From: a virus
Taxonomy: Duplodnaviria; Heunggongvirae; Uroviricota; Caudoviricetes
DNA: 25,810 bases
Virus record (IMG/VR): IMGVR_UViG_641736224_000035
Reading direction: 5' to 3' (one strand)
Shown here: positions 5,678 through 7,250 of the stretch, piece after piece
How the letters are laid out: each line of letters starts with the position of its first letter
Numbering within the stretch: position 1 is the first letter of the stretch
The notes under the pieces: model-generated
Told to the model about the DNA's origin: nothing
Database searches by the model: none
The model's input: the letters and a program-made list of their open reading frames with translations, nothing else
Made by a program: the position numbers and the translations under genes

Positions 5678-5940
5678 CCATTCTGGACTACATCGCTACT
5701 CATCCGGGGTGTAGCGGCGGAGAGATCGCCGCAGCACTGAATACCCCAACCACAGCCATTAATGCTGAGTTACGCCGACTTTGGCGCGGCGGCTTAGTCA
5801 TCAGAACAAACCGCAGCACAGGTGGTCGCGCTCGCAAAACAGGAGGCCAGGCTTCTTACCACGTAAACCCGATGCCGTTCGGGTGTAGCAATCCACTTAC
5901 TCACATGTTTAACCAGCTACTGAAGGAAGCCAGAGCATGA
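5674..5940 (+). CDS. Hypothetical winged-helix-like DNA-binding protein (88 aa)
   Basis: ATGA overlap with previous gene and AGGAG Shine-Dalgarno; N-terminal MTILDYIATHPGCSGGEIAAALNTPTTAINAELRRLWRGGLV resembles a winged-helix motif (inference). Confidence 0.5.
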   Translation: MTILDYIATHPGCSGGEIAAALNTPTTAINAELRRLWRGGLVIRTNRSTGGRARKTGGQASYHVNPMPFGCSNPLTHMFNQLLKEARA

Positions 5941-6236
5941 GCACCATCAACCACCAGAAGCTACGCGAACTGGCATTTGCCCTGCAACGAATGGCAACGC
6001 CTCAAAAATTACTGGCATTTCGCGCAATGCTCTCGCCGTCTGCTGTGCTGGCACTGCTGAATGAGCTGGAGCACGCCAGAACCACGGCTCCTGCCATTCG
6101 CCTGACGCTCCATCATGAAATCGCTGATTTCTGCGCGACGTTGGAGGCGCCGGGCGAACCGGAAACGCCGGAAGCAATACAGCAAGAGCTGCTGCAACGC
6201 ATTGACAAGGTTTTTGATTTTTTTCTGAACCAGTAA
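5937..6236 (+). CDS. Hypothetical early protein (99 aa)
   Basis: ATGA overlap with previous gene (5937-5940). Confidence 0.5.
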   Translation: MSTINHQKLRELAFALQRMATPQKLLAFRAMLSPSAVLALLNELEHARTTAPAIRLTLHHEIADFCATLEAPGEPETPEAIQQELLQRIDKVFDFFLNQ

Positions 6237-6358
6237 GAAACCAGAACATGCACACACAAAAAAACCGCTTGCCATGCCGCAATCAGTCAGGTTACATTTC
6301 CGCTGCACCTCATAAAACGGGTGCCGGGATTTCCACCCCGCTGACAACCAAAGCGCAC

Positions 6359-6379
6359 AACCGCGCCAGCGGTTTTTTT
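6359..6379 (+). terminator. Candidate rho-independent terminator inside the early region
   Basis: Stem aaccgc/gcggtt (6359-6364 / 6369-6374, loop gcca) followed by a T7 run to 6379. Confidence 0.55.
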
Positions 6380-6420
6380 GTGCGTACCGTATCGCCACGT
6401 CTTTTTCGCACACGAATTAT

Positions 6421-6499
6421 GGTGGGGCGTACAGGGCCGACTTCGGTCGGGCCGGGTTCTTTGGTTGCCGGTTGTGGAAACCCTGTACGTCTCACCACC
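6421..6499 (+). other. Candidate structured RNA element (nested GC-rich stems with UUCG tetraloop)
   Basis: ggtgg (6421-6425) pairs ccacc (6495-6499); cgtacaggg (6428-6436) pairs ccctgtacg (6481-6489); inner hairpin ccgac-ttcg-gtcgg (6437-6450). Not a tRNA cloverleaf. Function unknown. Confidence 0.3.
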
Positions 6500-6558
6500 C
6501 CGAGTTTTCCACCTCTGGATGGTGAGTTTTCAAAACTTACAACCAAAGAGGCCACCCC

Positions 6559-6864
6559 ATGGCAAACCGCAAACAACAGCGCGCATACGCTGCGCGTCGT
6601 CACATCCAGACTGAAATCAACCGCAGACTTTACCGCGCATCACGCGTCGCTCGTATCATGTTCATCAACATGTCACATGAGCACAGCCACGTGCTGTCAA
6701 ACGCCTACTCCGCCGCAGTATTAGCTATCTGGCGGATGATCTGCGCGAGCTTCAGCAGCTCATCGAGCAGCAAAACAAACCCCATTAATTCCTGTTCCGG
6801 GCCTTTCCTGCACCTTGCGGCGGGAGGCCTTCGCACATCTGTAGTAAAGAGAATTGCAGCATGA
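6559..6864 (+). CDS. Hypothetical protein (101 aa), C-terminal half of doubtful composition
   Basis: ATG 6559 with AAAGAGG Shine-Dalgarno at good spacing; stop overlaps the start of the next gene (ATGA at 6861-6864). The C-terminal part (SFSSSSSSK...) looks less protein-like than an alternative frame. Confidence 0.35.
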   Translation: MANRKQQRAYAARRHIQTEINRRLYRASRVARIMFINMSHEHSHVLSNAYSAAVLAIWRMICASFSSSSSSKTNPINSCSGPFLHLAAGGLRTSVVKRIAA

Positions 6865-7250
6865 TTGACGCTCATGACTTCACAAGATGGGTGCGCACAC
6901 AGGACACCCGTCTGGCTCCCGTTCTTCAGGGATTATTTGATCTCTACATCCGTGGTCGTGACAACAGAGCACGCACCACAAAACCGGAGAATGCAGACAC
7001 CCTTTATTTCACAGTAGACGACTGCTACCGCGTGGACTTCACACCACACGGGCTGGCGTTGCACTGCCTGACACCACACGGAGAATCACTGCTGGCGTAT
7101 TACGACTCCCCGGCCTCCGTATTTGCGGCAATGCTGGCGCATCGCACTGCTGGCGGGTGTGCCTCGCTGAGTGAATACACCGCTGAATTTAACCGCCTTT
7201 CTGCCCTCTTCTCGCAGGAGTGGCAGCGCGTGACGGGATACCAGCCATGA
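6861..7250 (+). CDS. Hypothetical protein upstream of the replication gene (129 aa)
   Basis: ATG 6861 verified; stop overlaps the A start (ATGA at 7247-7250). Confidence 0.55.
   Translation: MIDAHDFTRWVRTQDTRLAPVLQGLFDLYIRGRDNRARTTKPENADTLYFTVDDCYRVDFTPHGLALHCLTPHGESLLAYYDSPASVFAAMLAHRTAGGCASLSEYTAEFNRLSALFSQEWQRVTGYQP

Follow-up and report, generated by a model that had tools for sequence, protein, structure and literature searches.

The interval at positions 6237–6558 of the IMG/VR virus record IMGVR_UViG_641736224_000035 (Caudoviricetes; the whole stretch of 25,810 nucleotides is hereafter called the window) most probably holds an antisense-RNA immunity cassette of the P4 type, which is also that of P1 immI, in the early operon of a P88-like prophage; we put the probability of this reading at about 80%. 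The interval encodes, in tandem, an IsrK/seqA-like RNA with a terminator and a C4/CI-like RNA, and the b' and a' segments of the latter are complementary to two sets of sites, b1/a1 and a2/b2. The b2 site covers four bases of the Shine-Dalgarno (SD) sequence of the epsilon-like gene that follows, and the sites co-vary over many specificity types. The first-pass annotation, made from the sequence alone, had considered whether the interval might act as an attenuator, encode a phage small RNA or contain an internal promoter/operator. Each of these fits one component, but none names the system, and the short repeat and the palindrome, taken as an operator, are unsupported.

Matches to Rfam families were judged against the curated gathering scores and over the full model length. 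Both the isrK and the C4 models score above their thresholds (Table 1). The same two models also match the P4 seqA leader and CI RNA, P88 and an Stx2 phage, and both were found in 20 of 20 representative P88-like loci. The two families have been considered together before: Barquist et al. wrote of "the IsrK-C4 immunity system" and regarded the two RNAs as homologous in structure to seqA and CI of P4 (PMC3632133), and Hershko-Shalev et al. drew the same equation for IsrK and the processed RNA STnc1160 of Gifsy-1 (PMC4825925). The C4 structure at 6420–6497 has a minimum free energy (MFE) of -46.4 kcal/mol (z = -3.9), and none of 200 shuffled sequences folds as well; the nested stem closed by C(UUCG)G, earlier placed at 6421–6499, is real and is C4. 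The leader folds with z = -2.4, and the intrinsic terminator already recognised at 6359–6379, which consists of a 6-bp GC-rich stem (6359–6374) followed by T7 up to 6379 (the U-tail), is the 3' hairpin of isrK; the U-tail is the only visible feature that could relate to Hfq binding. The predicted transcription start (~6305) is the first base of the isrK model, with the TACATT hexamer ending 6 nt before model position 1, and 82 of 83 related sequences carry both hexamers unchanged. A GGU motif lies at 6421, at the 5' end of the C4 outer stem, and the 3' flank carries a conserved ACCACCC. Following the processing site described in PMC5320573, where occlusion of the ribosome-binding site (RBS) is also described, mature C4 is predicted to begin at GGU and to extend over approximately 6421–6497 (~77 nt).

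Further evidence comes from the comparison of related loci, gathered with the downstream protein as bait (n = 80; 48 unique sequences). The three C4 helices are 100% paired in 47 sequences, with changes on both sides in 5 of 27 pairs, located in the outer stem and the UUCG hairpin, while the three isrK helices are 98.9–100% paired, with both-side changes in 1 of 16 pairs. Between C4 and the leader, the b1:b' helix is 99.3% paired, with both-side changes in 7 of 9 pairs and a perfect match in 80 of 81 loci, and the a1:a' helix is 99.4% paired (47 sequences), with both-side changes in 4 of 7 pairs. Downstream, a':a2 is 98.2% paired, with both-side changes in 4 of 7 pairs, and is perfect in 81 of 81 loci, whereas b':b2 is 94.8% paired, with both-side changes in 6 of 11 pairs; its pairs into the AGAG of the SD are kept in nearly all sequences. 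For these four intermolecular helices, none of 500 shuffles matches the observed percentage paired, number of both-side-changed cells or covariation score, and slid controls are 27–51% paired. The first-pass annotation had staked its element on stems being conserved with compensatory changes in related phages, and the result of that test is strongly positive.

In the window itself, the reverse complement of b', CAACCAAAG, is present at 6345–6353 and at 6540–6548. The complementarity to the SD region, previously noted for 6458–6466, is in fact longer: 6457–6467 pairs with 6540–6550 over 11 bp, including one G-U, and reaches the AGAG of the SD AAGAGG. In total, the window contains four copies of CAACCAAAG or its complement, where 0.28 would be expected, and all but one of them are inside the element. 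The fourth exact copy is found at 1503–1511 on the minus strand, outside the prophage side of the integrase and without a nearby a-site, and is probably due to chance. The a1 (6330–6336) and b1 (6345–6353) sites, the a'/a2 pair (6474–6480 and 6506–6512) and the promoter-like site (6269–6298) are absent from the first-pass annotation.

Other structures in the target region received no such support. The duplicated motif GAGTTTTC is present at 6502–6509 as reported, and its second copy is at 6524–6531, one position away from where it had been placed. As an operator it can be set aside: 16 of 100 shuffled sequences also contain two copies, and the first one lies within the hypervariable a2 site of this type, so that the duplication is lost in other specificity types. 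The 13-bp palindrome also exists, at 6525–6537 (again displaced by one), but the hairpin to which it belongs together with the spacer (6522–6540) shows no covariation and is 85.9% paired, compared with 85.2% in shuffles. An anti-SD stem, 6512–6516 with 6547–6551, shows no covariation either, and the region 6498–6565 is structured at chance level (z = -0.8).

The 81 P88-like loci fall into 6 a-types and 11 b-types, which occur in 19 combinations, and the copies match within every type. Column conservation drops to ~0.75 exactly at the a and b sites. Inside the RNAs, nearly all differences between the window and P88 are two matched positions in each of b1, b' and b2; the b site is of type CAACCAAAG in the window and of type CAACTACAG in P88, and the full a/b types are CAACCAAAG/UUUCCAC and CAACUACAG, respectively. 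Across the 19 combinations, a-types and b-types are seen to be reshuffled relative to one another. One locus (L069:174–499) is a recombinant, in which the isrK part carries a1 UUUCCA and b1 CAAACGAAG, while C4 and the downstream targets are of type a' UUCUCAAC and b' GAGCAAAG. Its leader is mismatched to its own C4 and a2/b2 still match, so that this locus offers a natural means of testing what seqA/IsrK does. Another locus (L041:76–418) has a C4 variant with a duplicated hairpin 2 and two different b' loops (GAGCAAAG and CUACACAAG); the variant scores 73.9 bits against the Rfam C4 model and could have dual specificity. The exact a'/b' combination of the window was found in 7 viral contigs, of which 5 were already among the P88-like loci and the other two were not examined, and there was no sign of sharing with satellites.

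Table 1 Features of the cassette and its surroundings in the window
Feature	Position	Strand	Description
Eta/Ash-like open reading frame	6248-6724	+	Pfam PF10554 Phage_ASH, 31.6 bits (gathering score 26)
Sigma-70 promoter-like site	6269-6298	+	TTGCCA-18 nt-TACATT, 9/12 consensus positions
IsrK/seqA-like leader RNA	6305-6379	+	Rfam RF01394, 64.3 bits (gathering score 50), model positions 1-77 of 77
Leader hairpin 1	6305-6324	+	isrK model
Leader hairpin 2, a1 in loop	6325-6340	+	isrK model
a1 target, UUUCCAC	6330-6336	+	Complementary to a'
b1 target, CAACCAAAG	6345-6353	+	Complementary to b' loop
Leader linker holding b1, then intrinsic terminator	terminator 6359-6379	+	isrK model
C4/CI-like antisense RNA	6415-6502	+	Rfam RF01695, 82.0 bits (gathering score 45), model positions 1-87 of 87
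C4 outer stem	6420-6436 / 6481-6497	+	Rfam structure identical to MFE structure
C4 UUCG hairpin	6437-6450	+	C(UUCG)G cap
C4 hairpin 2 with 12-nt b' loop	6451-6472	+	Rfam structure identical to MFE structure
b' antisense segment, C4 hairpin 2 loop	6457-6467	+	Pairs with b1 and b2
a' antisense segment, single-stranded joint of C4	6474-6480	+	Pairs with a1 and a2
a2 target, UUUCCAC	6506-6512	+	Complementary to a'
b2 target, CAACCAAAGAG	6540-6550	+	Overlaps SD AAGAGG (6546-6551) of ORF 6559
Epsilon-like derepression protein gene	6559-6864	+	Orthologues match Pfam PF25738
GC-rich hairpin without U-run, GGCCUUUCCUGCAC...GCGGCGGGAGGCC	6799-6830	+	-20.2 kcal/mol, z = -2.0

The interval had been taken as non-coding, which does not hold, as a conserved open reading frame (ORF) with a Phage_ASH match above the gathering score starts at 6248 and spans all of it, including the promoter-like site, both RNAs and the target sites. 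The start ATG is conserved, 21–24 nt 5' of the -35 hexamer (21 nt for ATG 6248 of the window). In approximately 38 of 46 module variants this ORF has 205–206 codons and stops within the ATGA (6861–6864) that overlaps the start of the next gene, so that it traverses both RNAs and the entire epsilon gene, in a different frame from epsilon. In the window, the deletion of one T creates a TAG, which truncates the ORF at 158 codons. The Phage_ASH family links the ORF to eta of P4: the scores are 82.2 bits for the eta ORF of P4 and 27.1 bits for the ORF of P88, the match in P4 eta is exactly the translated seqA-CI stretch, and, counted from the AUG at the C4 5' end, the window/P88 ORF and P4 eta use the same frame. 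A direct BLASTP comparison of the eta-like ORFs of P88 and P4 was not significant, the link being through the Pfam profile and the shared frame only.

The frame appears to be maintained for its openness and not for its amino acid sequence. It is open across epsilon in 43 of 43 unique genes, compared with a mean of 10.5% in synonymous-codon shuffles, while the remaining alternative frame is open in none of the 43. In variants with +1/-1 indels, a stretch of ~180 nt is read in a different frame, and the ORF still stays open. Variation within the overlap peaks at the third codon position of epsilon (0.109, against 0.036 and 0.048 at the others), which means that the amino acids of the eta frame are not conserved. 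As in the P4 immunity region, an eta-like ORF that starts 5' of the internal promoter-like site is present as a sequence feature; its translation and an anti-termination effect would be assigned to it by analogy.

The gene whose SD is overlapped by b2 is annotated as "derepression protein" in P88. Three orthologues match the Pfam family PF25738 Derepression with 31.8, 33.6 and 30.5 bits (gathering score 27), compared with 170 bits for epsilon of P4, which RefSeq labels "helper derepression protein". P4 epsilon is an anti-repressor that inactivates the repressor of the helper phage. The copy of the window differs from those of its relatives in having lost one T from a TTT run (6721–6722), with a frameshift after codon 56, and its predicted product has 101 amino acids (56 codons and a tail in the eta frame) instead of 76. 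It matches P4 epsilon in BLASTP with E = 7e-4 over 31 amino acids. The T deletion is present in none of 5426 complete E. coli genomes; E. coli O157:H7 FRIK944, like every other relative, has the intact TTT. The deletion is a rare mutation or else an error of assembly. The replication gene had been proposed as the controlled target, but the epsilon-like gene would be the one most directly controlled, and the first to come under the RNA.

In P4, transcripts from the internal constitutive promoter end early and yield CI, while full-length Eta is translated only from the upstream promoter, and its translation prevents termination (PMC10111431). By analogy with P4, P1 and Gifsy-1, the following sequence of events may be proposed for the window. 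In the lysogen, the C repressor would shut the main early promoter and a weak constitutive internal promoter (6269–6298) would still fire. Most of its transcripts would end at the terminator at 6379, giving a leader RNA of ~75 nt, and those that read through would be cut by RNase P at the GGU at 6421, giving a stable C4 of ~77 nt. By pairing with a2/b2, C4 would block translation of the epsilon-like gene, and the untranslated RNA would be open to Rho, which would keep the downstream ORF and the replication gene A silent. Pairing of C4 with a1/b1 of nascent leaders could either reinforce termination or allow C4 to be titrated by free leader. Acting in trans, C4 would silence the epsilon-like gene of any incoming phage that shares the a/b type and thereby provide a second immunity specificity, one based on RNA. 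In the lytic cycle, ATG 6248 would be present on the transcripts of the upstream early promoter, so that ribosomes on the eta/Ash-like ORF would traverse the terminator, C4 and the targets; this translation would stop folding, pairing and Rho loading, and expression would reach the replication gene. The main uncertainty concerns the leader RNA, which may serve as a co-repressor site as in P4, or as an activator or sponge as in Gifsy-1.

The second of these roles leads to the alternative that survives best, although we consider it rather unlikely, namely that positive control is the main job of the module. Here a short IsrK-like RNA would act in trans to switch on an anti-repressor-like gene and trigger induction; the read-through transcript would be inactive because of pairing of a1/b1 with a'/b' in cis, which leaves the RBS unavailable, and the C4-like RNA would have a minor part or be a by-product. 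In favour of this, the window matches the same Rfam isrK family, and the mechanism was shown experimentally in Gifsy-1 (PMC4825925). The MFE structure of the full leader does pair a1:a' and b1:b' in cis, and these helices are as strictly conserved as the downstream pairs. That structure has, however, an ensemble frequency of 0.002 and is missing from the centroid. Furthermore, a2/b2, with b2 on the SD, co-vary with C4 equally strongly, which is expected for repression by C4 but not for a pure leader-on-leader switch, and in P4 and P1 it is the homologous RNA that serves as immunity repressor. The activator model and the P4-type model are compatible and not mutually exclusive.

It could also be argued that the functional product is the Ash-family protein of ORF 6248–6724, whose database label is transcriptional regulator/repressor, and that the RNA-model matches are side effects of conserved coding. 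The ORF does match Pfam Phage_ASH and PHROG entries for 'transcriptional regulator/repressor', is open in most relatives and is labelled 'ash family protein' in RefSeq. We nevertheless regard this as highly improbable, since the variable positions are three sets of reverse-complementary sites that change together, a signature of RNA pairing and not of a protein. The indel variants with their shifted yet open frame, and the lack of amino acid conservation of the eta frame over the epsilon overlap, point the same way. The Pfam family itself coincides exactly with the translated seqA-CI stretch of P4 eta, and the 'cI protein' label of P4 is historical, the immunity factor of P4 being described as the CI RNA (PMC4825925, PMC3632133, PMC10111431). 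A plain attenuator, in which the terminator lowers transcription into gene A without any antisense RNA and the GC-rich hairpin is incidental, deserves equally little credence: the terminator at 6359–6379 is clean and is placed like an operon-internal brake, but two full-length matches to curated RNA families, the three-way a/b covariation, the overlap of b2 with the SD and the conserved promoter-like site just upstream would all be left unexplained. Least credible is that a P2-like phage took up a P4-like cassette which is now inert and carried along without function. This would fit the frameshift of the window copy in the epsilon-like and eta-like ORFs but not the retention of the module in 80 of 80 fetched epsilon-like loci and in 1214 of 5426 complete E. 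coli genomes, the 19 internally matched combinations, which imply continuing selection, or the occurrence of the frameshift in 0 of 5426 complete genomes.

Several observations nevertheless weigh against the P4-type immunity cassette, or against parts of it. The role of the leader RNA is ambiguous: in Gifsy-1, the effect of the short IsrK on the downstream anti-repressor is activation, and additional STnc1160 caused no repression (PMC4825925). The MFE structure of the full leader pairs a1/b1 with a'/b' in cis, at a very low ensemble frequency. The promoter-like site is a sequence match only, at 9 of 12 consensus positions with an 18-nt spacer. The epsilon genes represent ~3–5 lineages, so the evidence for selection on the open eta frame is moderate. 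The frameshifted copy of the window has no PF25738 match at E <= 0.01 and is below the Pfam threshold, and the anti-repressor action of the epsilon-like protein is suggested by family membership only. Finally, this particular copy may be partly defective, since the 1-nt deletion shortens the eta-like ORF and changes the C-terminus of the epsilon-like protein.

The host of the interval is a complete P88-like prophage of the P2 family, in whose early operon it is located. It is flanked by an Ead/Ea22-like ORF (5937–6236) and by ORF 6559–6864, which is followed by ORF 6861–7250 and a P2-type replication gene A (Phage_GPA, 432 bits), while integrase and helix-turn-helix repressor genes are located upstream on the opposite strand. 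P88-like phages (genus Xuanwuvirus, P2-like Peduoviridae) contain the whole 322 bp at 88–97% identity, and many Stx-converting lambdoid phages contain ~235 bp of it at 73% identity. The RNA module is directly 5' of the epsilon-like gene in all 80 fetched loci, with 84–100% identity, and is found at 80% identity or more in ~22% of the complete E. coli genomes (1214/5426), O157:H7 strains included, where its RefSeq label is that of an "ash family protein" pseudogene. Column conservation is at least 0.9 from ~6250 to ~6840 and falls off in both flanks, and because of this the unit behaves as a cassette. At its left edge (window 6230–6260, loci L004–L083), at least 5 different junctions were observed, where the upstream genes vary and the start ATG is constant. 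This suggests that the unit of ~6248–6840 moves or recombines as a block, from varied left junctions. The hairpin at 6799–6830 sits between the normal epsilon stop and the next gene, in a region (6800–6839) where column identity is 0.90–0.98 in 57 loci, equal to or above that of most of the epsilon gene; it is only a tentative part of the cassette.

Further candidates in and around the interval were discarded. The minus-strand ORFs 6310–6603 and 6009–6413 and the hypothetical protein annotated in P88 have no family matches, a minus-strand match to the Rfam IMPDH RNA (17.7 bits against a gathering score of 95.4) is noise, and ORF 6861–7250 has no similarity to ORF151 of P4, of which it was considered a possible homologue. 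No tRNA or tmRNA was found. In an Stx2 phage (L002:6066–6182, minus strand), an ALIL pseudoknot, a frameshift element of IS3-family transposases, was matched with an Rfam score of 120.9 bits ~2 kb from the C4 module, to which it is unrelated.

Public annotation of this region is a problem, as a pseudogene label or a spurious minus-strand ORF hides the RNAs. In P88 (KP063541) a minus-strand 'hypothetical protein' is drawn over isrK and C4 (5033–5221), in FRIK944 (L091, 3994–4263) RefSeq gives an incomplete 'ash family protein' pseudogene, and the RefSeq record of P4 still lists a 'cI gene product' protein as a transcriptional repressor. Both RNAs are already annotated in at least one phage record of GenBank. 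What had been a "structured gap" is now a testable map with a promoter-like site, a leader RNA, an antisense RNA, four target sites and a controlled gene, and the matched a/b variants constitute a natural set of orthogonal antisense-target pairs. As a member of a described family, the cassette is ordinary, though well supported; it leaves the understanding of such systems unchanged and would not surprise a specialist. The results do suggest that P2-like prophages carry RNA-based immunity types beside their protein repressor. A broader and more tentative idea, which we find somewhat doubtful, is that P2-like helper-type phages, and not just P4-like satellites, carry the RNA immunity and epsilon cassette (~6248–6840) as a mobile unit. 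Its a/b 'barcode' (at least 6 x 11 types, in at least 19 combinations) would then form a second, RNA-encoded layer of immunity specificity, and the eta-like ORF would be kept open only for ribosomes to clear a path through the terminator and the RNAs. If this were true, the a/b layer would determine whether a given P2-like phage or satellite, co-resident or incoming, can express its anti-repressor.

Among the closest known systems is the immunity region of the satellite phage P4, in which the PLE promoter, seqA, the CI RNA and seqC, the last at the translation start of the first gene, are nested in the eta/kil ORFs and precede epsilon and then the alpha replication gene. The same two Rfam families are present in the same order, and the layout is identical. 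The promoter, or promoter-like site in the window, is followed by hairpin 1, by hairpin 2 with a1 in its loop, by a linker holding b1 and by the terminator; next come CI, with b' in a loop and a' in the joint, then a2, and finally b2, which covers the SD of the gene translated first. In P4, these elements are PLE (TTGCCT-17-TATAGT) just 5' of the seqA hairpin, a1 GUGAGAA, b1 UUCACAGG and a b2 located on the kil SD. A Phage_ASH-family ORF covers everything in the same frame, and an epsilon-family gene and a replication gene (alpha in P4) lie downstream. The window cassette, on the other hand, resides not in a satellite but in a complete P2-like phage that has virion genes and a C/Cox switch of its own, and the a and b sequences differ. 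The SD masked is that of the epsilon-like gene and not that of kil: the window has no kil-like gene nested in frame in eta, and b2 is followed directly by the epsilon-like ORF in another frame, offset by +140 from the C4 AUG, whereas an in-frame MAT... start is present in P4 and in Stx phages. P4 eta ends at the start of epsilon, while the epsilon-like gene of the window type is wholly inside the eta-like ORF, which ends at the start of the next gene. The spacer between terminator and C4 is also shorter (~35 nt compared with ~100 nt in P4).

The immI region of P1/P7, considered here for P1 from published papers, has the order a1 b1 - c4 - a2 b2 - icd - ant. It shares with the window the C4 family with its three stems, a' and b' segments with flanking a/b sites, occlusion of the RBS by b', the GGU processing motif at the 5' end of the outer stem and, as controlled product, an anti-repressor function. 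P1 and P7 differ in specificity by matched a/b changes, as do the relatives of the window, but their downstream genes, icd/ant, are unrelated to the epsilon-like gene. In the isrK-orf45(STnc1160)-anrP region of Gifsy-1, compared from its description, an isrK RNA with its own promoter and a leaky terminator is followed by a processed RNA and then by an anti-repressor gene; the order in the window is comparable, with a promoter-like site and a predicted processed RNA, and in both the leader and the downstream RNA are complementary. The Gifsy-1 region belongs to a lambdoid prophage, however, its anti-repressor is a different one and is translated by coupling to orf45, and the effect shown for the short RNA is activation. 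In the Stx-converting lambdoid phages, finally, isrK and C4 are ~73% identical to those of the window and are covered by an ORF in the same frame with a Phage_ASH match, but this ORF runs in frame into a Rha-family domain (Phage_pRha, 89.7 bits), and these phages have neither the epsilon-like gene nor a start codon upstream of the promoter.

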